64,000 nucleotides of DNA from a virus. Its lineage: Duplodnaviria > Caudoviricetes. Location of the stretch: positions 1 to 64,000 of IMG/VR virus record IMGVR_UViG_3300033066_000386; one strand, written 5' to 3'. The notes under the pieces are model-generated. The model searched no databases. It was not told the origin of the DNA and saw nothing but the letters and a program-made list of their open reading frames with translations. The first letter of the stretch is position 1; each line of letters opens with the position of its first letter. This document shows positions 52,938 to 64,000 of the stretch, piece by piece. The translations under genes and the position numbers were made by a program.

Positions 52938-52969
52938 AAAACTATTTTCCACTTTTTCTAAAAATCGTG

Positions 52970-52998
52970 TTGCACTTAAACGAATTTAAGCGTATACT
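52970..52998 (+). promoter_or_regulatory. sigma70-type promoter TTGCAC-N17-TATACT with CACTTA-N8-TAAGCG
   Basis: Read directly. Confidence 0.8.
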
Positions 52999-53037
52999 AA
53001 GTGTGTAGAGACGAGCGACAACCAAACGCAAAGGAGA

Positions 53038-53331
53038 ATGACGATGGCAACCGAACTGATCACCAGGACGTGCAAATGCCTCGCGTGCGGGCGACGACCC
53101 GCCGCAACGACGCCGGAATGGCCGGCGCTTTGTGCATCGTGCCTCGACCGCACCGGCGAACGCATCAGGCCCGGTGTCCGCGTGATCTGCGAAGTCGATG
53201 ATGGATGCAGCGGTACGGTCAATCGAATCGAAGATGGCCTGGCGGTTGTGACGACCAGCGATGGCAAGGAAGCGTGGATACCCATCCCCGAATTGGTTGC
53301 CATCACGAAAAGCATGAGATCCAAGTCCTAG
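53038..53331 (+). CDS. Zn-finger plus SH3-like small protein
   Basis: CLAC..CASC then IRPGVRV...GTVNRIEDGLAVV; AAGGAG RBS. Confidence 0.6.
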   Translation: MTMATELITRTCKCLACGRRPAATTPEWPALCASCLDRTGERIRPGVRVICEVDDGCSGTVNRIEDGLAVVTTSDGKEAWIPIPELVAITKSMRSKS

Positions 53332-53353
53332 CCCCAACATCGGTACAGCGTCC

Positions 53354-53650
53354 TCAATCGCCCAACCATTTTCGGTAGTACGTTTCGGAAGCAGTCGGTT
53401 CATCGCCAAATGTCTGGCCTGATTGCTTGAACTGCTTCCACAAAGCTTCTTCCATCGCTTCCGCAGCATCCAACCAATAGAAGCATCGGTACAAAACCGA
53501 TGTCCTAATTTCCATCGTTGGTGGTAGGTCAGCCGTGGGTGGGGTGGAGCAGAATTCACATCCGCAATCCCCCCGTAGCCCATCGTGCTGGCATGTGGCA
53601 CACAAGCTCTCCACCAAGTCTTGACCGCAATTCGGGCAATTACCGTTCAT
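53354..53650 (-). CDS. Cys-rich hypothetical protein
   Basis: CPNC..CATC..CGCEFC. Confidence 0.5.
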   Translation of the reverse strand: MNGNCPNCGQDLVESLCATCQHDGLRGDCGCEFCSTPPTADLPPTMEIRTSVLYRCFYWLDAAEAMEEALWKQFKQSGQTFGDEPTASETYYRKWLGD

Positions 53651-53843
53651 TGGATTTCTCCGGTTCGTACCGTTGGCAAACTCTCACTCGTCGCATCATC
53701 ACTCTATAGGTGTGGCAGTCATGTGCCTCAAAGAATCTATCGCATAGACCGTTAATGACTGATAAATGCAACAACATTCTTCTTGTCTCGATATCATCGC
53801 ATTCCAACAAATCCATGTAGTTTTGCATGTAGTAATCGAGCAT
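53640..53843 (-). CDS. hypothetical protein
   Basis: ATG 53843 overlaps the TAA of the ThDP-enzyme gene. Confidence 0.45.
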   Translation of the reverse strand: MLDYYMQNYMDLLECDDIETRRMLLHLSVINGLCDRFFEAHDCHTYRVMMRRVRVCQRYEPEKSNER

Positions 53844-55477
53844 TACACTTCCTTCGGCAATAGGATTTGTTGGTCGTGCTTGCATTCGATTTCGATGACG
53901 GCGGGGTCGGTATATTTAAGTACTCGTTCAAGTTCAGATATGTTTTCTCTGGTTAAGCGACTGTGTATGACAATTCCCATTGCTTCGGCTACGTCTGAAA
54001 TGTCTGGTATGGCCACATCATCGCCGCTACCTATCCTCCTGCCCTCACAGTATCGGTCTTGGGTATTACGAATGGACGCATAGCCACCGTTGCTGATGAC
54101 GATGATCTTGACGTTGAGTTCTAGTCGCGCGAGTACGCTTAGCTCCTGCACGTTGGTCATGAAGCTACCATCCCCGATAACGGCAACCACCGGCACATTC
54201 GGATTGGCCAGGGCTGCTCCGATGGACGCTGGCAATGCCCACCCCATTTGGGCCAATGATCCAGGGCAGATGAATCTTCGGTTGCCCATCATCTGCATGA
54301 CCTGAGGAATGGCGTAGTAGGGCTGCCCGGCATCGTAAAGGATAATGGCGTCTTGGGATATCTCGTCGTTCAAAGCGGATAAGGCTTCGTACAGGTCTAG
54401 CGGTCCATCTTCGTTGTCTACGATATACTCTTGGCTATGTTGGTGGTAGGCGTCTCCACATGCCCTATGCCAATCGCTTCCCTCATGGGTAAATTCCAGC
54501 TTGAGCTTAACCAGCTTTCTAAGGAACTCGCCCACGTCGCACTCGAACTTCAAGCCGCCGTGATCCACCTTGTCCAGTACGGCGCGGTCCGGGTCCACAT
54601 GGATGATCGTGGCGTTCTTGGGCAGGTACTCGCCATCCCATCCGATGGTTTGGTTGTGTAGGCTACAGCCCATGACGAGGACCACATCGGCATTCTTGAG
54701 CATCCAGTTCGCTGCGGTATGACCCTTCACTCCTGGGTGGCCATAGCTGTATCGGATGGCATCTTTGGCGAATTGGGTGGTGATGATCGGGATGGTGCAG
54801 GACTCGTCTAGCTGGCGTGCCGCCTCAATCGCTCCAGAACAGCGTATGCCGTGTCCAAATAGGATCAACGGGCGTCTAGCCTCCTTGAGCAGTTTGGATG
54901 CCTGCAAGGGCCATTCTGGATTGATTTTAACCCGTTCTAGGGCCGGATTTAGTGGCTCTTTAGGAATCGGCAGCTTGTCTTGGCTGATTTCGCTGCTTTG
55001 AAAGTCGAGGGGGACTTCCAAATAGACCGGCCCCGGCCTTCCCGACACGCATTCCATCCATGAGCCTTCGATGCAGATAATGCCGTGATCCTTGGTGAAG
55101 GCCGAGACGATGGGGAACGTATCTACTTCAAGAAACCCCGTTTGTCTCAATCTAGTTCCATTATTGCAATCCTTGACCTTGCTTTGACCCACGATGTAGA
55201 TGACGGGGATGGAGTCTTGGTACGCGCTGACGATTCCCGTAATGAGGTTGGGTCCACCTGGTCCACCCGTGGCAAGGCATAGGCTGGGTCTGCCCGTTAT
55301 CCGAGCGTAGGCATCGGCAGCATAGGCTGCGGCTTGCTCATGGTGGAAGCAGGTGTACCCCATGCCGCTCTTCTTAACCGCGTCCATCAAGTACATCATC
55401 TGCCCACCCGATACCAGGAAGGCGTGGTCAATGCCCTGGGCTTGCAGGAATTGGATGAGGTAGTCAGCTACGATCAT
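53843..55477 (-). CDS. ThDP-dependent enzyme, acetolactate-synthase-like (YerE-like candidate)
   Basis: HHEQAAAYAADAYAR..TGGPGGPNLITG (catalytic Glu); GDGSFMTN...ISNGGY (ThDP motif); AAGGAG RBS before ATG 55477. Confidence 0.88.
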   Translation of the reverse strand: MIVADYLIQFLQAQGIDHAFLVSGGQMMYLMDAVKKSGMGYTCFHHEQAAAYAADAYARITGRPSLCLATGGPGGPNLITGIVSAYQDSIPVIYIVGQSKVKDCNNGTRLRQTGFLEVDTFPIVSAFTKDHGIICIEGSWMECVSGRPGPVYLEVPLDFQSSEISQDKLPIPKEPLNPALERVKINPEWPLQASKLLKEARRPLILFGHGIRCSGAIEAARQLDESCTIPIITTQFAKDAIRYSYGHPGVKGHTAANWMLKNADVVLVMGCSLHNQTIGWDGEYLPKNATIIHVDPDRAVLDKVDHGGLKFECDVGEFLRKLVKLKLEFTHEGSDWHRACGDAYHQHSQEYIVDNEDGPLDLYEALSALNDEISQDAIILYDAGQPYYAIPQVMQMMGNRRFICPGSLAQMGWALPASIGAALANPNVPVVAVIGDGSFMTNVQELSVLARLELNVKIIVISNGGYASIRNTQDRYCEGRRIGSGDDVAIPDISDVAEAMGIVIHSRLTRENISELERVLKYTDPAVIEIECKHDQQILLPKEV

Positions 55478-55626
55478 GGTTGCTCCTTTTCGTATTTGAG
55501 GGAGAACGCTAGCAACTCTTCGAGCGTGGGGGCCGCGATCTTCGTCATAACGATTGCCGCACCTCTCACACACGTCATCCTCAAGGTGATATCCACATTC
55601 ACATGTAAGCATTGAATTACTCCTAG

Positions 55627-55872
55627 CTATCGCACGCTGGACAACGCATTGGATACTCGAAGCTCCACTTGGTCAACTGCTAACTCAAACGCATGTTCCA
55701 ACCCGTCTGCCCTATCTCCCATATAGGTCTGCCATCTCCATCCGTAATCCTTCTCACCCACCCCTTCCGTGAAGTACACGTCTGCAACCTTACGGACCAA
55801 TCCGCGCACCTTTGGGCCGAAGTTCCATGTGTCGTCACCGATGTATTGCCACTCCATTTCGTCAATGCTCAT
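55627..55872 (-). CDS. hypothetical protein
   Basis: AGGAG RBS. Confidence 0.55.
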   Translation of the reverse strand: MSIDEMEWQYIGDDTWNFGPKVRGLVRKVADVYFTEGVGEKDYGWRWQTYMGDRADGLEHAFELAVDQVELRVSNALSSVR

Positions 55873-55880
55873 GGTTGCTC

Positions 55881-56108
55881 CTAGCAGCGAATAATCGGAT
55901 TGTTGTCGGAATGGATTTTGTTCAGCGCGTCCTGCATTTCCTTATCCCCAAACGAGGGATCAATCTCGTGCTTGAACACCAGATCGAGATGCTTCCTAAT
56001 CATCGTTGTTGCCTCTGGGTCAATGCCTTCGTCCAAGATGCTGCCCCTTCCCTTACCGCTAATCTCAAAATACCCTTGTAACCAGTAACAGAAATCTCGA
56101 CTTGTCAT
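55881..56108 (-). CDS. hypothetical protein
   Basis: MTSRDFCYWLQGYFE..HLDLVFKHEIDP. Confidence 0.7.
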   Translation of the reverse strand: MTSRDFCYWLQGYFEISGKGRGSILDEGIDPEATTMIRKHLDLVFKHEIDPSFGDKEMQDALNKIHSDNNPIIRC

Positions 56109-56275
56109 GACGTTCTCCCATAAAAGTGAAAGCGGGTTCCGTGGCTTCGATTGCTACACCCGCCACATAGCACGGTCTGTGGGTTGGGGCCTTGTTATCG
56201 GCCTGCTTGCGTGGGAACTGGCGAAGACGTAGGCCACGCAAGCCCCGGAGAGCCACGGCTGCTCCTATGAAACTC

Positions 56276-57133
56276 CTACGTCTTCCTGAGTCCTTCGAGT
56301 ACGTAATAGTTCATGGTCCGCTTGAGGGCATCTTCGAGCGGAATGGTGGGCTCGTAATTACCAAGAATGAAGTCCTTTTCTGGTTCATCGTCTCCGAGAA
56401 CCACGTTGTCCGTTAGTAGTCGCGCGACCCTGACTAGGCTAACAGCATCGAGACTTCCTAGTTCACACAACAGATTCTCTACAGTTGCTCGCAACAATTC
56501 AATTACCATATCGCAAGCGTGGAGATAACCCCTAACGGTGTTGGGAGAGCGTACCAAGACCGGCTCACCGGCAAGGGCTTGCTTGATGAAGTTGCCCACC
56601 GCGAATCGCTCTAGGTCCATCATGGGGCCGACGAAGCTGTAACCACGAACAATGCTGGCTTCCAATCCGTCTTCTTCACACGCTCGGTGCAACATCGTTT
56701 CACATAGACGCTTGGTCTCGGCTATCACCCTGCGCGAATCGTTCCACCCATAATCCATGTGGACCGCTTGGCTGGAGGTGAATAACAGCTTCTTTACGCC
56801 TTGCACCTTGCAGAATTCCAAGACACGTTCCATGCCCACAATGTTGTTGGCGATGCTCTTGTGGTCGTAGGCAAAGTGCATGACGTAATCGTGGCCGTCA
56901 GCATGGTCCAAGCCCAATAGCGGGTCCAAGTTCTGAATTCGGTAAGCGTCGTGGTAGCTCCAGAACGTGGTGATGCCTAGCAATTCATCCGCGCGATCCA
57001 ACGTCATCGTCATCCACCTACCAAAGAACCCAGCGGCTCCCGTGATGAAGATGCGTTTGCCGTCAAGCTGCCTCAGATACGGCTCCGCATGCTTGACGAT
57101 GTGGTCCAAGTCGGCTTGTAGTTGTGGGTTCAT
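56276..57133 (-). CDS. NAD-dependent epimerase/dehydratase (extended SDR)
   Basis: IFITGAAGFFGRW Rossmann motif; LLFTSS; R.FSFVGP-like; TVRGYLH. The YxxxK position reads IAETK. Confidence 0.8.
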   Translation of the reverse strand: MNPQLQADLDHIVKHAEPYLRQLDGKRIFITGAAGFFGRWMTMTLDRADELLGITTFWSYHDAYRIQNLDPLLGLDHADGHDYVMHFAYDHKSIANNIVGMERVLEFCKVQGVKKLLFTSSQAVHMDYGWNDSRRVIAETKRLCETMLHRACEEDGLEASIVRGYSFVGPMMDLERFAVGNFIKQALAGEPVLVRSPNTVRGYLHACDMVIELLRATVENLLCELGSLDAVSLVRVARLLTDNVVLGDDEPEKDFILGNYEPTIPLEDALKRTMNYYVLEGLRKT

Positions 57134-57281
57134 CGCATGATCCTTTCGATGATAGCAGAGGCGGCGAATGGAATTAGGGTGCAGACAAATCCGATGATCG
57201 ACCCCACCACCATCCCTGTTCGCCAAGCCCTACCGTAAGCCCTGATCTCCCCTTCGGTCTTGTAGTCGTCTATGTCGAAAA

Positions 57282-57473
57282 TCATTCCTTGCCTCCCAGC
57301 CCTGCGGCTTTACAGACTTCCTCAACCGCTTGATCCAATACGTCGATCTTATCCTCAGCCTTCCTCAAGCGGTGATAGAGGAAGGGGACAATGGAGGCCA
57401 ATGCGACCGCGGCCACGGACAGGCACGCACACACAATGCCAAGACACACGCAGACCGTTTCTAGAGTATTCAC
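57282..57473 (-). CDS. small membrane protein
   Basis: N-terminal TM. Confidence 0.5.
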   Translation of the reverse strand: MNTLETVCVCLGIVCACLSVAAVALASIVPFLYHRLRKAEDKIDVLDQAVEEVCKAAGLGGKE

Positions 57474-57664
57474 TCGGTTACTCCGTTGTCTTGGTAGGTC
57501 GTCGCAACGAACTGTGCGTGCGAATCGTCTATGGCCAGTTCTTCCTCGTAGCAGTCGTTACAGATTGGCTCATAAAGGTCAGCAGGATGCCCAGGGAAGT
57601 TGTCTGAAGCAACCTTTATTGGGAATGACTTCTCACACTTCCAGCACACGAATTCTCCGCTCAT
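57470..57664 (-). CDS. small Zn-finger protein
   Basis: CWKC...CNDC. Confidence 0.55.
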   Translation of the reverse strand: MSGEFVCWKCEKSFPIKVASDNFPGHPADLYEPICNDCYEEELAIDDSHAQFVATTYQDNGVTE

Positions 57665-57858
57665 TTCGCACCACCTTTCTCCACCAGCTTGGGGGGCTGT
57701 TCCTGGCCGTTGGCAATTTCATGAGTGAGTGAGTCGATGTACTTGAGCAATTCGCCCACATGCTCGGCGTAGGTTTGGTTGCTGGCGGCATTGTAGCCCA
57801 GGCTTGCTTCCGCATGCCGCTTACGAATCACTTCCAATCGTTCCTTAGTCATCATCAT
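57661..57858 (-). CDS. hypothetical protein
   Basis: 4-bp overlap with neighbour. Confidence 0.5.
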   Translation of the reverse strand: MMMTKERLEVIRKRHAEASLGYNAASNQTYAEHVGELLKYIDSLTHEIANGQEQPPKLVEKGGAK

Positions 57859-58366
57859 TCTCCCTTGGTTGCATTAAACCATTTCGTTTCTTGTTGGGAC
57901 CGAATCCTAGACGCCTTCGACGGGCGGCAAAGCTGGGGGGCTTGATTCCCAACTCGGATGCGGCTTCCTTGTCCGTGTATCCGGCGTCCATCAGTCGTAT
58001 CGTTTGTTCTCGCACTTCCCAATCCACATTCTTGACGTACCAGTCTTCGTCGCCTACCTTGCAATTGGGCTTTAATCCGCGCGCCTTGCGCCATTGGCGG
58101 ATGTTGCTGGACGTGCATCCGATTCTATCCGCAATGTCCCGATCCGATAGACCTGAACCATAAAGCTCTTGCCCCATCTCGGACAGCTTCCGGCTATGGC
58201 GGAACGTGGGTATCGCCGGTATCCCCCGCTTGGCCCTCCATTGCTGGACCAACCATTTCGTGCAACCCACCTTTTGGGCAATGACGGAATCACGCAGCCC
58301 CATCTCGACCATGCCCCTACCGATCTGGTCTAGTACCTTGGTTGCCCCGGTATGTATGTGCGACAT
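57845..58366 (-). CDS. protein with three tandem HTH repeats
   Basis: GLRDSVIAQKVGCTKWLVQQWR / GLSDRDIADRIGCTSSNIRQWR / GYTDKEAASELG. Confidence 0.75.
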   Translation of the reverse strand: MSHIHTGATKVLDQIGRGMVEMGLRDSVIAQKVGCTKWLVQQWRAKRGIPAIPTFRHSRKLSEMGQELYGSGLSDRDIADRIGCTSSNIRQWRKARGLKPNCKVGDEDWYVKNVDWEVREQTIRLMDAGYTDKEAASELGIKPPSFAARRRRLGFGPNKKRNGLMQPRENDDD

Positions 58367-58376
58367 GAACCCTCCG

Positions 58377-58640
58377 TCATTTCTTTTTCAAGTGCTTTCC
58401 CGCAATGATCGTTTCCAGGTGTTCCACACGCACCCGTAACTCCGATAACTCGTCTTCCAAGGTAAGCTGCTCGCCACCACCCCCACCTTCCCCGTCGTCT
58501 TCGTCCTCATCTGGTGGTCCAAGGCCAATGATTACATCCACGAGGGCTTCTACGTGATCGGTGGTTAGCTGATCCGTCTCGACCATTTGAGAGAAGGAAC
58601 CCCTGTCAGGACGATTGCTAACGCTATGGTACTTAAACAT
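58377..58640 (-). CDS. hypothetical protein
   Basis: Acidic linker plus coiled coil. Confidence 0.5.
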   Translation of the reverse strand: MFKYHSVSNRPDRGSFSQMVETDQLTTDHVEALVDVIIGLGPPDEDEDDGEGGGGGEQLTLEDELSELRVRVEHLETIIAGKHLKKK

Positions 58641-59008
58641 GCTGCCCCTCCCTCATCCGTAGTTTCTTCCGTGCCTCTCGATACGCCACTTGCTGTTGAG
58701 CGACGGTGAACCTTTTCTTGAACGTCAACCTGCTATGGATGACCGCCGTCTCATAGTTGACCATGATTTCCCAATTCTTCCGCGCGGATTCCACGATGGC
58801 ATCGCGTAGCACATCGATTGCCTTCATGTACTCTTCCGGTGTATCCATCATCCTTGCACCCCCCTTTCTTTCTTGGGCTTCGGGCTGCCCTTGCCGCACA
58901 TCGAATGCTTCAACCCATCTCGGTACTTGGAATTGGATTGAGAGCATTTCTTGCAAACGCGCTGCCCGTCGAATTGTTGAGGCTTTTCCTCTCGGCACTT
59001 AAGGCAAA

Positions 59009-59296
59009 TCATGTCATCACTCCGTGACCAGGGTTCTTCAAATCCCCTCCATCCAATGCCAGCCCCTCTTTGGCCAGCTTGGATAGACGCTTGATGGCAT
59101 ATTCCATTTGTAGGGCTTCCGACTTGCTCTCGCATTTTAGCATCCATACCAGCGATACGGGCAGTCTTGATCGGGTGTATTTGGCCCCCTTGCCGCTATT
59201 GTGTTTCTTCTCGCGCGAGTACACATCATTGGACACGCCGCAATAGAGGCTGCCATCGGAGCATCGCAAGATGTAAGTGTGCCACGTTAGTACCAT
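59009..59296 (-). CDS. GIY-YIG nuclease family protein
   Basis: WHTYILRCSDGSLYCGVSND...HNSGKGAKYTRSRLPV...ALQMEYAIK. Confidence 0.9.
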   Translation of the reverse strand: MVLTWHTYILRCSDGSLYCGVSNDVYSREKKHNSGKGAKYTRSRLPVSLVWMLKCESKSEALQMEYAIKRLSKLAKEGLALDGGDLKNPGHGVMT

Positions 59297-59529
59297 GTCG
59301 GAACGCTCGGCTGGGTCAGGACGTTGAACCGCTTCTGAACGGCTGCCATGACCCTATCGTAGACCCAATCCGGTAGCTGCTCGGTTGGCGTTGTGAGGAT
59401 GATGTCTTTCGGTATCTCGGCTAGGAATGTCATCCTATCCGCCGTCCCAAGCAGCTTCCGTGCCCGCATCATGAGGATGAAGGCATTGGGTTCCTTGAGG
59501 TCCGTGATGTCGATTTGCTTACGCTCCAC
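59287..59529 (-). CDS. hypothetical protein
   Basis: GGAGG RBS region; 80 aa. Confidence 0.5.
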   Translation of the reverse strand: MERKQIDITDLKEPNAFILMMRARKLLGTADRMTFLAEIPKDIILTTPTEQLPDWVYDRVMAAVQKRFNVLTQPSVPTWY

Positions 59530-59733
59530 TAGTAATCCTCCAATTTAGTTAGTCGCACCCGTTGTCCGACATGCCGTCAATCCAATTTGTTTCGATGACC
59601 TGCCTCTTCTCTTCTACGGCGTCAATAGCCCATTGGCATCCTTTGAGAGCGAATGCCAACATCCACTCGTCTCCGGTTGGGTAATAGGTGGAACCGTCTT
59701 TACAGACTATACCTGGGCGTATTGGCTCTAACA

Positions 59734-59964
59734 TCAGTAATCCTCCGTTAGAAACTCCACGTCTTTGCACCACACGCACTCGAACTTGGTTTCGACCCGA
59801 ATCTTGCCATCCTTGGTGTATCGCCCATGCCCCTTGTAGGCGTAGCTCCCACCGCAATAGGAATGTCTACAGGGCTTGCCGTGGCCCTTGTCATGGAGTC
59901 GGTCGATGAACTCCGATAGCCCCGGCTTGGCTGGCGTTACCTTCCGTGTCGGTTTCATGGTCAA
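59734..59964 (-). CDS. small Zn-ribbon-like protein
   Basis: CRHSYC...CVWC. Confidence 0.5.
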   Translation of the reverse strand: MTMKPTRKVTPAKPGLSEFIDRLHDKGHGKPCRHSYCGGSYAYKGHGRYTKDGKIRVETKFECVWCKDVEFLTEDY

Positions 59965-60200
59965 CCCTTGTCTATCTGCTCGGCAAATTCCATAGCGGCT
60001 TTAACGGTATTAAACCTCTTATGCCACGGTGTGCCGTTGCTCTTTTTGTGTACGTTGGAAATCAGTAGTGCCGCCGATCCTCGACGTAAAATCTCAAATT
60101 TCCCATCTTCCGAATCGTACCCTGCGATTGCATTATCTTTACGAATCCACAATCGGAAATCGCTACCCAAGGTAATGTGTTTAGGAAATGCCGGTCTCAT
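59961..60200 (-). CDS. hypothetical protein
   Basis: ATG 60200 overlaps the rfbH TGA (ATGA). Confidence 0.5.
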   Translation of the reverse strand: MRPAFPKHITLGSDFRLWIRKDNAIAGYDSEDGKFEILRRGSAALLISNVHKKSNGTPWHKRFNTVKAAMEFAEQIDKG

Positions 60201-61522
60201 CGCTCCACCACCTTTTCGTGAAAAATCTCTAGAACGTAATCCAGCATAGCAGTCGTTAGCCCCGGCCAACAACCTACCCAGAATGTATTGTGCATCACAT
60301 AATCAGTGTTGGCAAGTTGGCCCACCACTCGCTTCTCCACGTCCTTGTAGGCCGGTTGCTTGGTGAGATTGCCCCCGAATAACAATCGGGTCTGGATGCC
60401 ATGATCGTTTAACTTGGCTACTACGTAGTTGCGATTAAAGAATGCAGAGGATGTTGGACGTATCGACAAGGCGAACCCGAACCATGAGGGGTTGCTGTTG
60501 GGTGTAGGCTCCGGCAGGATGAAGTATTCTTCCAAGTCTTTGAGGCCATCGTAGAGGTACTTCCAGTTGAATCTGCGCGATTCGATGAACGACGGCAGCT
60601 TCTTGAGTTGAGCCAACCCCAAGGCGGCTTGCATCTCGGTTGCTTTCAAGTTGTAGCCAATCTCCGAGAAGGCGTACTTATGATCCCATCCATCCGGCAA
60701 TTCGCCTAGCACGCTCTTGGGCTGATTGAACCGCTTACCACAAGAGTTGTCCACCCCTGGCGGACACCAGCAAGAACGCCCCCAGTCCCGTAGCGAGTTG
60801 ACGATAGAGTTTAGCTTGGCGTTGCTCGTCACCACCATGCCTCCCTCGCCGGTTGTCATGTGGTGGGCTGGATAGAAGCTGTAGGTGGAAAAATGACCGG
60901 CCACGCCCACATGGTCGCCAATTATCTCATCCCCATACCTTGAGCCTAGCGCGTCGCACGAATCTTCGATCAGGTAGAGGTCGTGCTTGTGAACGAACTC
61001 GTAGACTTCCGTCATGTTGAAGGGGTTGCCCAGCGTATGGGCGATCATAACCGCGCGGGTCTTGTCGCTCCTTGCGGCTTCCAACTGGGTCACGTCGATG
61101 TTGTAGGTCGGCAAGGTCACGTCCACGAATACAGGAACTAAACCATTCTGAATGATCGGGTTGACCGTGGTGGGGAACCCTGCGGCTACGGTGATTACCT
61201 CATCCACCTTCCTGAGAGGGTTGTCCAATCGCTTCGAGGTGAGGGCGGTGAGGGCTAGTAGATTCGCACTACTCCCGCTATTGGCGAAGGATGCGAACCG
61301 TTGCTCCACCGTATCCGCAAATGCCTTCTCGAATGCCGGTACACGATGCCCACCCGTTAGGTCGAAGTCCAGGGCGGATTCCACCAAGGCCACCATCTCC
61401 TCATGATCGTAGACCTTGCCGCTCACGGGGACTTTGTTCTTGCCTGGGATGAACGGCGTGGGCTTGTGGAACAAGTCGCAATATCGCTTGACGGAATCGA
61501 GAATGGAGGCTTTGTCGTTCAC
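60197..61522 (-). CDS. rfbH: CDP-4-keto-6-deoxyglucose 3-dehydrase (E1, RfbH/DdhC)
   Basis: DegT-family fold with His in place of the Schiff-base Lys (SFYPAHHMTTGEGG) and Fe-S Cys motifs EDSCDALG and RSCWCPPGVDNSCGKRF. Confidence 0.92.
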   Translation of the reverse strand: MNDKASILDSVKRYCDLFHKPTPFIPGKNKVPVSGKVYDHEEMVALVESALDFDLTGGHRVPAFEKAFADTVEQRFASFANSGSSANLLALTALTSKRLDNPLRKVDEVITVAAGFPTTVNPIIQNGLVPVFVDVTLPTYNIDVTQLEAARSDKTRAVMIAHTLGNPFNMTEVYEFVHKHDLYLIEDSCDALGSRYGDEIIGDHVGVAGHFSTYSFYPAHHMTTGEGGMVVTSNAKLNSIVNSLRDWGRSCWCPPGVDNSCGKRFNQPKSVLGELPDGWDHKYAFSEIGYNLKATEMQAALGLAQLKKLPSFIESRRFNWKYLYDGLKDLEEYFILPEPTPNSNPSWFGFALSIRPTSSAFFNRNYVVAKLNDHGIQTRLLFGGNLTKQPAYKDVEKRVVGQLANTDYVMHNTFWVGCWPGLTTAMLDYVLEIFHEKVVER

Positions 61523-61830
61523 TTTGATAACTCCGCGTTGAGCATATCGGTCAGGTCGGAAAGGAATAGGTTCATGCAGACGGATTTACAGGGGTCTTTT
61601 TCGGACAAGCTGTAATGATTAAAGACAACCATTTCGAGCGGTCTTAGATTAAAGTATCTTTGAGACACCTCCCTAATCATCTCCACCGTTAGTAGTCGCT
61701 TGGGCTTGTCATCCCGTTTGTACTCGTGCGACTCCAACTCGCTTAGCCGATCATTCACTTCGGCCAACGTATCGTAGCCAACCTCCCGTGTCATATCCCC
61801 TAGCGTCTCACGAACGTAATACCTACTCAT
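61519..61830 (-). CDS. hypothetical protein
   Basis: Overlaps the rfbH start by 4 bp; start approximate (MSRYYV). Confidence 0.45.
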   Translation of the reverse strand: MSRYYVRETLGDMTREVGYDTLAEVNDRLSELESHEYKRDDKPKRLLTVEMIREVSQRYFNLRPLEMVVFNHYSLSEKDPCKSVCMNLFLSDLTDMLNAELSK

Positions 61831-62197
61831 GGCGTTGCTCCTTCGGCCACCCCGACCACGACTCTCCGTGCATGGGATGGAACATTGATAAAGCATCCAG
61901 TATTGAGTTTATTTTTTGAGACAGTTCCCATGACCACGAACTACTACCAACGTTCCTAGTTAGGTCAGCTATTAACTGAATGGCTTCCTGATGCTTCTCT
62001 AAGATACAATCACGGTTAGCCTCAATTAAGCCAGCCATAGGATCGTACCTAGCGGATAACTCCTTTTCCAATTCATCAATCACTGCTGCCCTACGAAGCA
62101 ACTGCCTGCTTAAGATGCGTAGATCATCATCAGGATCACAATTAGGCTCGTTGAGTAATTTGTTGGCCAGCACTATAGAGTCAGATTTCTCGCTCAC
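61823..62197 (-). CDS. hypothetical protein
   Basis: GTG start overlapping the rfbG stop; helical. Confidence 0.5.
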   Translation of the reverse strand: MSEKSDSIVLANKLLNEPNCDPDDDLRILSRQLLRRAAVIDELEKELSARYDPMAGLIEANRDCILEKHQEAIQLIADLTRNVGSSSWSWELSQKINSILDALSMFHPMHGESWSGWPKEQRHE

Positions 62198-63147
62198 GGC
62201 TTGTTCTCCCCAAAGTATTTGCGATACCACTTAACCGTCTCTTTCAACCCATCCGCTAGCGTCCAATTGGGAACCCAGCCCAGCTTGGCACGGGCTTTTT
62301 GAGAGGAGAGATGCTGGGCCTGAATCTCGTTCGTGGCCTCGTTGCGGATATCGATTTTACAATACCTAGCGTCGGACATGAACAAGCCATGCATCTCAGC
62401 TAGAACGTTGACCACCATTTCTTTAGCGTCAATCGGCTCATCGTTGCTGAAGTTGAATGCCTCACCGTTCTGCACCATGCCGAATGCCAGGCCCTCCGCT
62501 AAAGCAATGTAGGCGTTGACGGCATCCTCTACGTAGAAGTAGTCGCGGATTGGTGTACCATCGCTACGAATAACGGGATTCTGACCTTGGAGTACACTAC
62601 GAATGGTCCCTGGTACGATACGGTTCCAGTTGAGGTCCCCTCCCCCGTAGATATTACCCATGCGTGCAATGGCAATGGGGAGGTCATAGGTTTTGGCGTA
62701 GCACTGGGAGATGAGGTCGGCACAGGCTTTGGAGCAATCATAGGGGTAGAGTCCTCGTAAGGGCGTGTTCTCGGTGTAGGGCAGGATGGGGGATTCGCCA
62801 TACGCCTTGTCGGACGACACGGTAATTATCTGCTCAACTTTTCCGTGTCTTCGGCAGGCGTCGAGAACGTTCACCGTTCCCATTACGTTGGTGTCCATTG
62901 TCGATTTTGGATTTTTGATTGCCTCACCTACCTGCGACTGCGCGGCCAAATGAAAGACTGTCTTGCTAATTTCGGTCAAGCGGTAAACGGCTTGGAGGAT
63001 CGTTACGTCCATCTCTTCGTGGAGGCACAAATCAAGTCTCCAAACGAATGCCCCCATCTCCTCCAGCTTCCTTACCAGCCATGATCCAACGAATCCGCTG
63101 GAGCCGGTGACGAGGACGGATCGATCTTTCCAGAATTCGGGTTTCAT
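62194..63147 (-). CDS. rfbG: CDP-glucose 4,6-dehydratase-like (RfbG/DdhB)
   Basis: FWKDRSVLVTGSSGFVGSWL, VFHLAAQ, SSDKAY, PYDCSK, NIYGGGDLNWNRIVP. Confidence 0.85.
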   Translation of the reverse strand: MKPEFWKDRSVLVTGSSGFVGSWLVRKLEEMGAFVWRLDLCLHEEMDVTILQAVYRLTEISKTVFHLAAQSQVGEAIKNPKSTMDTNVMGTVNVLDACRRHGKVEQIITVSSDKAYGESPILPYTENTPLRGLYPYDCSKACADLISQCYAKTYDLPIAIARMGNIYGGGDLNWNRIVPGTIRSVLQGQNPVIRSDGTPIRDYFYVEDAVNAYIALAEGLAFGMVQNGEAFNFSNDEPIDAKEMVVNVLAEMHGLFMSDARYCKIDIRNEATNEIQAQHLSSQKARAKLGWVPNWTLADGLKETVKWYRKYFGENKP

Positions 63148-63423
63148 TGCTTTGCTCCAATCGAGTTAGGCTCGCGCGAGTAAATACGGGTAATTACCCC
63201 TCCACTTTCTTCATCGGGCAAGATGGATGATGCCCGCAAGCGCCTGGGTCATTGCTGGCCCCGCAATCACACTTCGGGGAGTTGTCGTCTACCGGCTGTA
63301 ACGCTTCTCTGGCAAGCTTCAAAGCATCGTAGAGAACGTCGTGGTCATTGCTTGTCAGCATGTAGCCGATGGTCCAATCTAGCTGAACCAACCTCTCACA
63401 AGCTTGCTGACACAAATCCAAGT

Positions 63424-64000
63424 TTACTTTATCCACGGTGCATTCCCTTCCTTCCACATTTGGTTGAGTTCTGCCAAATCCTTCGAGGTATCGCACGATG
63501 CGAAGAACCCCTTGTGACGATACGCCATGAGGTCGCTCGTCTCGGCCATGTCCTTGAGAGTGTCTTCGAGTGGACCCTTGCTTAATCGATCCAGGATGCC
63601 CCTATTGAACACGAAGAACCCCGCATTGACCCATTCATCGGTTTGGGGCTTTTCCTTGAAGGAGAGGACCGTATCGGCAGCTAGGATGTAGCCTTGGGCA
63701 TCGGTATAGGTTCGGTCGTTGATGTCCAAGACCCCGTACTTGGATCGGGGCTGGACGGCTACCAGGGTTGCCATGCGTCCGTGAGTGCGATGGAAATCCA
63801 CCACCTCTTGAATGTCCACATTGGATAGTCCATCCCCGTAGGTGCAAAGGAAGGTGGGTTCGGTGATGTAGTCGCGCAGTCTTAACAGCCTCTCACCCGT
63901 TTGGGATTCCATGCCGGTGTCCACCATCGTGACCTTGAACGAGTCCTTTTCGTCCATTGGGTCGCCGTGGTACTTCATGGCCCCGATGTTGGAGATGGTG
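63424..64000 (-). CDS. rfbF: glucose-1-phosphate cytidylyltransferase (RfbF/DdhA), 5' end beyond the window
   Basis: VTMVDTG..SQTGERL...TFLCTYGDGLSNVDI...FHRTHGRMATLVAV...FKEKP..WVNAGFFVF...GFFASCDT..D..ELNQMW; frame open to the window edge. Confidence 0.9.
   Translation of the reverse strand, partial: TISNIGAMKYHGDPMDEKDSFKVTMVDTGMESQTGERLLRLRDYITEPTFLCTYGDGLSNVDIQEVVDFHRTHGRMATLVAVQPRSKYGVLDINDRTYTDAQGYILAADTVLSFKEKPQTDEWVNAGFFVFNRGILDRLSKGPLEDTLKDMAETSDLMAYRHKGFFASCDTSKDLAELNQMWKEGNAPWIK

Follow-up and report, generated by a model that had tools for sequence, protein, structure and literature searches.

The synthesis of yersiniose A in Yersinia pseudotuberculosis reportedly goes back to the work of Chen et al. 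in 1998. The enzymes of this pathway are DdhA, DdhB, DdhC and DdhD (equivalent to RfbF, RfbG, RfbH and RfbI), followed by YerE and YerF (PMC9306805, PMC12247030). In the erwiniose, caryophyllose and gastriose clusters (ErwE/F/I/J, MMAR_2332, MyGE; PMC9306805), CDP-4-keto-3,6-dideoxyglucose is likewise branched by a ThDP enzyme and then handled by an NAD(P)H reductase, and aldolases encoded in these clusters make hydroxylated 2-oxoacid donors of greater length. A further YerE-like carboligase, JanthE of Janthinobacterium sp. HH01, has been solved by structure determination (8rph, 8rpi, 8rpj; PMC12188165). In the Janthinobacterium cluster there are also aldolases of the HpaI and DmpG types, together with an acetaldehyde dehydrogenase. 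Viruses may bring their own path to an activated sugar as well, as in the case of chlorovirus GDP-fucose/rhamnose, mimivirus UDP-viosamine and the sugar genes of cyanophages. In virome surveys, rfbH/ddhC is listed among the viral auxiliary genes (PMC10653327, PMC11295528).

In this study we have analysed five sugar genes of an uncultured phage with an 89,757-bp record, of which the first 64 kb form the window, that is, the whole stretch of DNA that was analysed. As in the yersiniose A pathway, the set comprises a cytidylyltransferase, a 4,6-dehydratase, an E1 with the His and Fe-S motif, a ThDP carboligase that is of the FAD family and belongs to the same clade, and then an SDR. It differs from that pathway in having neither E3 (DdhD) nor a transferase nor O-antigen genes, in its SDR, which comes from a different family than the 311-aa protein encoded after the ThDP gene in that pathway, and in the dispersal of its genes across a phage genome. 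In contrast to the other viral routes, the phage path would be CDP-linked, starting from glucose-1-phosphate and combining Fe-S/PMP deoxygenation with ThDP-dependent C-C branching, with no transferase of its own. The pathway is already known in bacteria, while its phage setting is undescribed in the literature searched.

Genomic setting

All five genes were recovered by family or PDB matches on the minus strand, where the preliminary description had placed them, in the transcription order rfbF, CDP-glucose 4,6-dehydratase-like gene, rfbH/E1, extended SDR and ThDP enzyme. The features of the locus are the following.

53843 to 55477, minus strand: YerE-like ThDP-dependent carboligase, 544 aa when counted from the likely start ATG 55477, the ORF reaching 55612
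54125 to 54132, no strand: copy of the palindrome TCGCGCGA inside the ThDP gene
55478 to 56275, minus strand: two or three small ORFs separating the ThDP gene from the SDR
56276 to 57133, minus strand: extended SDR, 285 aa; likely start ATG 57133, the ORF spanning 56276 to 57226
57134 to 60196, minus strand: about 11 small phage ORFs separating the SDR from rfbH, many with 4-nt start/stop overlaps
57470 to 57664, minus strand: double-CxxC protein, in the SDR-rfbH spacer block
57845 to 58366, minus strand: tandem-HTH DNA-binding protein, in the same block, matching phage DNA-binding and regulator PHROGs
59009 to 59296, minus strand: GIY-YIG protein (6.7e-18), in the same block
60197 to 61522, minus strand: RfbH/DdhC/AscC (E1), PMP- and [2Fe-2S]-dependent CDP-4-keto-6-deoxyglucose 3-dehydrase, by NF011936 and 3bcx
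61523 to 62193, minus strand: one or two small ORFs separating rfbH from the dehydratase gene
62194 to 63147, minus strand: CDP-glucose 4,6-dehydratase-like SDR of a divergent subfamily common to bacterial cassettes (TIGR02622 below cut-off; 1wvg/1rkx)
63424 to 64000 in the window, minus strand: rfbF, glucose-1-phosphate cytidylyltransferase, running on to 64221 (likely GTG start) or 64275

The whole set fits in 10.4 kb of the phage genome, with gaps of 801, 3063, 671 and 276 nt, and the genes are parted by some 15-17 small ORFs rather than the roughly 20 first counted. The spacers do contain the types of protein described earlier, namely Zn-finger-like (double-CxxC), HTH and GIY-YIG ORFs; the SDR-rfbH block also holds two tiny membrane ORFs, and for most other spacer ORFs between the sugar genes no family match was obtained.

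Since the five genes are all of bacterial type and the record, assembled from a metagenome, is classed as 'linear', the sugar arm might be host DNA that a misassembly or a recent transduction has linked to the phage. However, the sugar genes alternate with small ORFs that include the phage-PHROG tandem-HTH protein, and the arm has portal and head genes as neighbours on one side and, on its other flank, terminase, DNA polymerase and methylases. The palindrome TCGCGCGA, specific to the phage, has 27 copies in the window, where 1.3 would be expected, with the same density in the arm as in the rest; within the arm it is found at 54125, 56420, 59211 and 63172, the last two lying between others of the five genes, so that the copies previously noted inside the ThDP gene (54125) and the SDR (56420) are indeed there. 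The GC content, 52.5-54.3%, of the arm is in line with the rest of the phage, the compared bacterial cassettes having 55-60%, and its codon use correlates with that of the remaining phage at 0.951, equal to the control mean. Related ThDP genes were found on 179 IMG/VR contigs. The SDR and ThDP homologues (47-88% identity) are listed with the same lengths for the longest contig (89,794, 6,380 and 4,400 bp), which suggests that the pair is linked in at least three relatives. Composition, codon use, palindrome and the linkage of SDR and ThDP genes in relatives all speak against a chimera, a reading to which we give almost no credence: the sugar arm is compositionally native phage DNA.

The ThDP enzyme

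The phage protein contains three ThDP domains (PF02776, PF00205 and PF02775), all scoring above the cut-off. Its relatives begin about 46 aa into the ORF, where ATG 55477 is preceded by a Shine-Dalgarno sequence, AAGGAG. In an alignment of 22 sequences (A1), the catalytic Glu (E92) is invariant, as are G480, G482 and N508 of the GDG...N cofactor motif, and D481 is present in at least 90%; the phage clade carries a GDG motif where JanthE has the ThDP motif CDG (PMC12188165).

According to the top NCBIfam names (acetolactate synthase large subunit), and to a single-sequence search whose best PDB match is AHAS I of E. coli (224 bits, with PpYerE no closer at 214), the protein could be taken for an ordinary acetolactate/acetohydroxyacid synthase (AHAS), carried as an auxiliary gene for branched-chain amino acids that has no relation to the sugar genes. 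Against this, every AHAS model falls far below its cut-off (TIGR00118, 291 vs 538 bits), and the clade profile, when compared with the PDB, finds JanthE best (8rph, 544 bits), followed by PpYerE (406) and AHAS I (404). In the tree, where two classic-order enterobacterial loci and a Janthinobacterium lividum MAG locus stand in for the characterised YpYerE, ErwE and JanthE, the true AHAS sequences split off with a support of 99, and the YerE-like sequences form a clade of 60 rows (98) in which two enterobacterial loci are arranged as E3-rfbF-rfbG-rfbH-ThDP-SDR. The phage lineage (100) sits within a 24-row clade (99) that also holds the J. lividum cassette copy (L008), L013 and L203; it belongs to another subgroup than the enterobacterial enzymes, with which the phage protein shares 25-28% identity. 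An approximately unbiased (AU) test rejects the grouping of phage and AHAS (delta lnL 157, p = 3.3e-5). The homologues, moreover, adjoin rfbF/G/H in dozens of bacterial loci, and of the Pfam families that two sweeps of the phage detected (16 and 19), none corresponds to an AHAS small subunit or another ilv enzyme. An AHAS function is therefore hardly credible. Tree, AU test and profile search agree with the original assignment: judged by its sequence, the phage protein is a member of the YerE-like sugar-branching clade and not an acetolactate synthase.

The kind of branch is another matter. JanthE, the best structure match of the clade profile, accepts C3 to C6 2-oxoacid donors (PMC12188165), so the two-carbon, yersiniose-type branch that had been put forward along with the enzyme's identity is just one possibility for the phage.

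The cytidylyltransferase, dehydratase and E1 genes

In the rfbH protein, the curated equivalog model NF011936 is matched at 644 bits (cut-off 423) and the Yersinia E1 3bcx at 7e-144. E1 is said, after Agnihotri et al. in 2004, to carry a His at the position of the PLP-binding Lys, as well as a C-X57-C-X1-C-X7-C motif for its [2Fe-2S] cluster. The alignment to 3bcx bears out the E1-specific His and Fe-S cysteines that had been read from the phage gene, with equivalents of H220, C193, C251, C253 and C261 all present and Val at the position of C257.

The dehydratase scores below the cut-off of TIGR02622 (217 bits vs 278), as does the dehydratase of the bacterial cassette L008 (209.5 bits). Its best PDB matches are CDP-glucose 4,6-dehydratases (1wvg, 1e-41; 1rkx, 1e-39), its SDK and YxxxK motifs align to 1wvg, and it is 48-52% identical to the copies in bacterial cassettes. 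In the case of rfbF, the part in the window reaches 158 bits with TIGR02623 (cut-off 300); the full-length protein is an NTP_transferase that matches 1tzf over the whole chain (1.4e-56).

The extended SDR

The phage SDR keeps the Rossmann GxxGxxG, the Ser and the Lys, and the catalytic Tyr of YxxxK is replaced by Ile. This position is occupied by Ile, Val or Leu in all nine SDRs of the phage lineage, and deletions make the phage protein about 60 aa shorter than its bacterial homologues. Nor is the protein of the YerF type: tblastn with three 311-aa SDRs from classic-order enterobacterial loci against the phage genome left the phage SDR unmatched. Its own family (about 345 aa) takes the place of the YerF type in other cassettes, being found in 29 loci against 10 with the YerF type and none with both.

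Genes missing from the phage

The E3 reductase (RfbI/DdhD), with its domains Fer2, FAD_binding_6 and NAD_binding_1, is absent not only from the window, as first reported, but from the entire 89,757-bp record, where six-frame scans with PF00175 and PF00111 gave no match at E <= 1 and tblastn with two enterobacterial E3 proteins returned only noise. Nor did any glycosyltransferase turn up in Pfam sweeps of all genome ORFs of at least 70 aa, in six-frame scans for three glycosyltransferase families or in a relaxed scan that covered ten ORFs of the tail region.

The lost Tyr and the deletion of about 60 aa in the SDR, together with the lack of E3 and of a glycosyltransferase, could mean that the cassette is a decaying remnant from which the finished sugar is no longer made. 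We regard this as improbable. The reading frames are intact in all five genes and catalytic residues are kept in four of the enzymes. The Tyr-less SDR is conserved across nine members of the lineage, down to 41% identity, with invariant nucleotide-binding Gly motif, Ser and Lys, and is predicted with confidence (pLDDT 86) to adopt the extended-SDR fold, which points to selection rather than decay. As for E3, it is not nearby in 63 of the 69 bacterial loci that contain both a ThDP gene and rfbH. We therefore favour a functional set: it is likely that the phage has a complete, probably working cassette for a CDP-activated, C4-carbon-branched 3,6-dideoxyhexose.

Proposed pathway and use of the sugar

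Gene identities, catalytic motifs, clade, synteny and native composition are results of this analysis; every chemical step, the donor and the target are inferred. RfbF would convert glucose-1-phosphate and CTP to CDP-glucose, from which the 4,6-dehydratase would form CDP-4-keto-6-deoxyglucose. E1 (RfbH) would then take off the 3-hydroxyl and, as no E3 is encoded, the electrons would come from a host reductase. The YerE-like enzyme would decarboxylate a common 2-oxoacid and place the acyl group on C4. Aldolase genes such as those that supply longer donors in the Janthinobacterium, erwiniose, caryophyllose and gastriose clusters were not found in the phage, so a short donor, probably pyruvate or another central metabolite, is more likely. 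A reduction of the side-chain carbonyl by the SDR would be the last step; this is doubtful because the catalytic Tyr is missing, and the end product may instead stay a 4-C-acyl keto sugar, or the SDR may act in another way.

Glycosylation of the virion, the DNA or the host surface had been proposed as the purpose of the sugar, a proposal left without sequence support by the lack of any glycosyltransferase in the genome searches. In the case of DNA, the sugar would serve hypermodification through a glycosylated modified base, and the genome is rich in DNA-modification genes, which encode a Mom-like protein, three N6/N4 methylases and a UDG-family protein. Yet no dCMP/dUMP hydroxymethylase, thymidylate-synthase or DNA glycosyltransferase family was present in either Pfam sweep, and transfer of a CDP-linked sugar to DNA is not known to us from any system. 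As neither hydroxymethylase nor transferase was found, DNA glycosylation is the least likely use, and a very improbable one.

As no transferase is encoded, the sugar would be passed on to a host glycosyltransferase or to an unrecognised phage protein. We lean towards a transferase of the host, which would have a surface glycan of the host or virion proteins as its target; an unrecognised phage transferase is possible and distinctly less likely, and it is unlikely that the sugar has no productive use. More tentatively than for a phage transferase as such, one may think of a phage that makes a rare C4-acyl-branched CDP-dideoxyhexose and attaches it to the virion or another chosen target by an unrecognised type of transferase, with the Tyr-less SDR in a new role, non-redox or by another mechanism. 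Such a combination, if true, would amount to a phage glycosylation system of a new kind.

Relation to bacterial cassettes

Only the five sugar enzymes among the phage proteins have homologues in the bacterial cassette loci. Thirteen of the 69 loci with both ThDP gene and rfbH are colinear with the phage (F-G-H-SDR-ThDP). The same order is found in a locus of Janthinobacterium lividum (L008), in which the products of rfbF, rfbG, rfbH, SDR and ThDP gene are 58, 50, 42, 27 and 39% identical to the phage proteins. On this comparison the phage set is, in content and order, a bacterial CDP-branched-sugar cassette. The conserved order suggests that it was most likely acquired as a single block, which would then have been split by insertions of small phage genes. 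A gap between the SDR and ThDP genes, of about 570 nt, is also seen in a related metagenome fragment (L165).

Five dispersed sugar genes

The phage arm between positions 53843 and 64000 carries five genes which, in our judgement, probably enable the phage to make a C4-branched CDP-3,6-dideoxy sugar. All of them lie on the minus strand, as do nearly all genes of this phage, and at the positions given in the preliminary description. Besides an SDR and a ThDP-dependent enzyme, they comprise:

likely start 64221, beyond the window edge, minus strand: rfbF; the full protein matches the Salmonella glucose-1-phosphate cytidylyltransferase 1tzf full-length (1.4e-56)
62194-63147, minus strand: rfbG-like dehydratase; 217 bits with TIGR02622, under the cut-off of 278, its best solved relatives being two CDP-glucose 4,6-dehydratases
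60197-61522, minus strand: rfbH (the 3-dehydrase E1); 644 bits with the curated RfbH equivalog, cut-off 423, and an end-to-end match to 3bcx (7e-144)

Alignment of the rfbH product with 3bcx, the Yersinia E1, confirms the E1-specific residues that had been reported. The equivalent of H220, the histidine replacing the PLP lysine, is conserved, as are those of C193, C251, C253 and C261 (spacing C-X57-C-X1-C-X7-C), the Fe-S cysteines; the fifth cysteine of 3bcx, C257, is Val in the phage protein. In the dehydratase, the SDK and YxxxK motifs align with those of the solved CDP-glucose 4,6-dehydratases. The protein is 48-52% identical to the bacterial cassette copies, of which that of Janthinobacterium lividum (L008) scores 209.5 bits with TIGR02622, and the subfamily that misses this cut-off is the one used in the bacterial cassettes.

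Taking the likely starts with a good Shine-Dalgarno sequence at 55477 (ThDP), 57133 (SDR) and 64221 (rfbF), the gaps between the five genes measure 801, 3063, 671 and 276 nt. They hold small ORFs, many overlapping by 4 nt, so that the described separation of the sugar genes stands, although the ORFs number about 15-17 rather than 20. One of them codes for a DNA-binding protein with tandem HTH, another for a GIY-YIG protein (6.7e-18) and a third for a protein with a double CxxC; tiny membrane proteins are encoded by two. Next to the SDR start, at 57130-57473, is a pair of tiny ORFs (51 and 63 aa) that share 4 nt and each encode one hydrophobic helix.

Relation to bacterial cassettes

The five phage proteins were compared by tblastn with loci fetched with a ThDP profile. 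Bacterial ThDP homologues very often adjoin rfbF, rfbG and rfbH. A Planctomycetaceae MAG supplies the closest one of cellular origin (43-44% identity), and the loci around it and its relatives show the same neighbourhood; the closest cellular homologues as a whole are scattered among Planctomycetota, Verrucomicrobiota, Acidobacteriota, Armatimonadota and Janthinobacterium. The phage order F-G-H-SDR-ThDP is found in 13 of 69 non-redundant bacterial loci holding both the ThDP gene and rfbH, and two loci, L245 (Verrucomicrobiia) and L076 (Armatimonadales), pack the starts of all five into about 4.3-4.4 kb, leaving no room for genes between them. A tblastn search with every phage ORF over some 250 sugar loci from bacteria and viruses found homologues only for the five sugar genes. 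The phage lacks the aldolase, acetaldehyde dehydrogenase, aminotransferase and GT2 genes that accompany many bacterial cassettes. The simplest history is that all five genes were captured at once as a block and that small phage genes later moved in between them, the arm being a bacterial operon split by phage genes with its order kept.

A cassette of rfbF, divergent rfbG, rfbH, 345-aa SDR and ThDP gene recurs in L008, L076, L226, L236, L245, L254 and other loci, from Acidobacteriota, Verrucomicrobiota, Planctomycetota, Armatimonadota, Bacteroidota and Janthinobacterium.

The ThDP enzyme and the SDR

Compared as a single sequence, the ThDP protein is ambiguous, scoring 224 bits with acetohydroxyacid synthase (AHAS) I, 215 with JanthE and 214 with PpYerE, JanthE being the characterised YerE-like Janthinobacterium carboligase that takes ketones (PMC12188165, PMC12247030). 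A profile built from the protein and its nearest relatives gives 544 bits to JanthE (8rph) versus 406 to PpYerE and 404 to AHAS I, and the protein falls far under the cut-off of every NCBIfam AHAS model. In a tree of 69 ThDP proteins, from which the characterised YpYerE, ErwE and JanthE were left out, seven true AHAS (each over the TIGR00118 cut-off) split off with a support of 99, and the cluster-linked enzymes all fall into one clade of 60 (support 98), which takes in two enterobacterial loci ordered E3-rfbF-rfbG-rfbH-ThDP-SDR. The phage lineage is monophyletic (100) and nested in a subgroup of 24 (99) with loci L008, L013 and L203. A clade of phage and AHAS proteins is rejected by the AU test (delta lnL 157, p = 3.3e-5), and thus the grouping with true acetolactate synthases, named beforehand as the outcome that would speak against a sugar enzyme, is not observed. 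That the ThDP protein is itself an AHAS, as the highest single-sequence score might suggest, is extremely unlikely.

The SDR is not the YerF-type reductase that had been proposed: in classic-order loci the ThDP gene is followed by a 311-aa SDR, and tblastn with this SDR gave no match in the phage. The family of the phage SDR (about 345 aa) occurs in 29 of the 69 bacterial loci and the YerF type in 10; no locus has both, which hints that the two may have equivalent roles. The phage protein is about 60 aa shorter than its family and has Ile at the position of the catalytic Tyr, and a decaying remnant might look so. In the phage lineage this position is Ile, Val or Leu in all nine SDRs, with identities as low as 41%, whereas no member departs from the Rossmann glycines, Ser and Lys. 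Bacterial homologues such as the L245 and L008 copies bear the Tyr. The predicted model is confident (pLDDT 86) and has an extended-SDR fold, with structural neighbours including UDP-xylose synthase and the C. jejuni CDP-glucitol-forming reductase. The SDR is under selection, a natural compact variant devoid of the canonical Tyr, and that the cassette is a decaying remnant we consider unlikely.

Residence in the phage genome

The sugar genes have a GC content of 52.5-54.3% and a GC3 of 64-72%, inside the range of other long phage genes, and the correlation of their codon use with the remainder of the genome is 0.951, equal to the mean of random six-gene phage sets; the bacterial cassettes compared have 55-60% GC. 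GC is even over the whole window (50-56%). The window holds 27 copies of the 8-bp palindrome TCGCGCGA (1.3 expected), at sites spanning 497-63179; its extended form TAGTCGCGCGA occurs 15 times (0.03 expected), and many copies are located at gene junctions. The palindrome is as dense in the arm as in the rest of the window, and the arm copies include the two intragenic ones noted previously:

54125: TCGCGCGA, inside the ThDP gene
56420: TCGCGCGA, inside the SDR gene
59211: TCGCGCGA
63172: TCGCGCGA

In Pfam and PHROG sweeps over every phage ORF of at least 70 aa, one flank of the arm shows capsid, portal, a Mu-F-like protein and protease, and the other terminase, DNA polymerase A, helicases, three N6/N4 methylases and a Mom-like protein. 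SDR and ThDP homologues (47-88% identity) recur with equal largest-contig sizes of 89,794, 6,380 and 4,400 bp, which suggests that the two genes are linked in these relatives, and the 1.4-kb metagenome fragment L165 has the same SDR-gap-ThDP layout. A chimeric origin of the arm, joining foreign DNA to the phage, has hardly any probability.

Proposed pathway and missing functions

What the analysis establishes is gene identities, motifs, clade membership, synteny and composition; the chemical steps and the target of the pathway are proposals. CDP-4-keto-3,6-dideoxyglucose would be formed by RfbF, the dehydratase and an E1 that draws electrons from a host donor. On its C4 the ThDP enzyme would put an acyl branch, and the SDR might then reduce this branch or leave it as it is. 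The product could then be used by a host transferase or an unrecognised phage protein. JanthE accepts C3 to C6 donors (PMC12188165), and the absence of aldolase genes from the phage points to a simple central 2-oxoacid as the putative donor.

Six-frame NAD_binding_1 and Fer2 scans of the whole phage genome found no E3, the reductase partner of E1, and two enterobacterial E3 proteins used as tblastn queries brought up nothing above noise, which extends its reported absence from the window past 64 kb. E3 is likewise missing within 10 kb in 63 of the 69 bacterial loci (nearby in six), and this argues that the cassette would normally rely on another cellular reductase. SpnQ offers a precedent, being served by general ferredoxin or flavodoxin reductase pairs.

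The further glycosyltransferases to be looked for beyond 64 kb did not appear: none is recognisable anywhere in the phage genome, and ten tail-region ORFs scanned with relaxed Pfam settings gave no transferase signal. Use of the sugar for DNA modification, which the methylases and Mom-like protein of the genome might bring to mind, is very unlikely. The cassette poses two sharp questions, namely which protein supplies electrons to E1 and which transfers the sugar.

A minus-strand ORF just downstream of the ThDP gene (52942-53601, 219 aa), considered as a transferase, has no family, no atlas match and a pLDDT of 35, and is probably not a gene; 51.6-53.3 kb is taken up by plus-strand ORFs.

Occurrence in other viruses and genome setting

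Among the determinants of bacterial surface antigens, carbon-branched 3,6-dideoxy sugars are rare, and the YerE-like enzymes that form them are wanted as biocatalysts for tertiary alcohols. The bacterial pathway is already known, in silico work having turned up more than 200 YerE-like clusters (cited in PMC12247030), and rfbH/ddhC is among the viral auxiliary genes of virome surveys (PMC10653327, PMC11295528). Full-text literature searches found no phage-borne YerE-like enzyme and no complete phage CDP-branched-sugar route from glucose-1-phosphate. The deposited phage genomes searched hold no close match: by megablast the arm matched none of 50,697 phage records, and tblastn with RfbH and ThDP gave only ColD-like cyanophage genes (32% identity) and records resembling host contamination. 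IMG/VR and JGI metagenomes, scanned with single proteins for close relatives, yielded none, or one 1.4-kb fragment.

Related YerE-like enzymes lie on at least 179 IMG/VR contigs, where they are mostly accompanied by SDRs and an RfbH-like dehydratase, often by PanB too, and where rfbF is lacking. Among the IMG/VR loci L085-L164, the 66 examined that also have an RfbH-like gene carry an RmlD-like SDR (60/66), ketopantoate hydroxymethyltransferase PanB (47/66) and distant 4,6-dehydratase-like SDRs, and no rfbF; this gene content suggests that these loci may make a different, possibly longer-branched sugar. The theme is therefore not unique to this genome and, given its spread over these contigs, phages may commonly make exotic sugars, to coat themselves or to remodel hosts. 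Particular to the present phage is a self-contained CDP route of five genes starting at a central metabolite, glucose-1-phosphate, dispersed yet ordered, without a transferase and with a Tyr-less SDR.

The phage record totals 89,757 bp, the window being its first 64 kb, and is rated complete by CheckV. The part at 64-90 kb (loci L003 and L004) is dense in DNA-modification genes (the Mom-like protein and the three N6/N4 methylases) and homing genes, its nucleases being several HNH, endonuclease VII and LAGLIDADG. The terminase sought past 64 kb is also found there, its large subunit being two separate ORFs about 3.2 kb apart with unrelated ORFs in between:

genome 72012-73007 (L003:10013-11008): Terminase_6N, N-terminal ATPase part
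genome 68107-68847 (L003:6108-6848): Terminase_6C, C-terminal nuclease part
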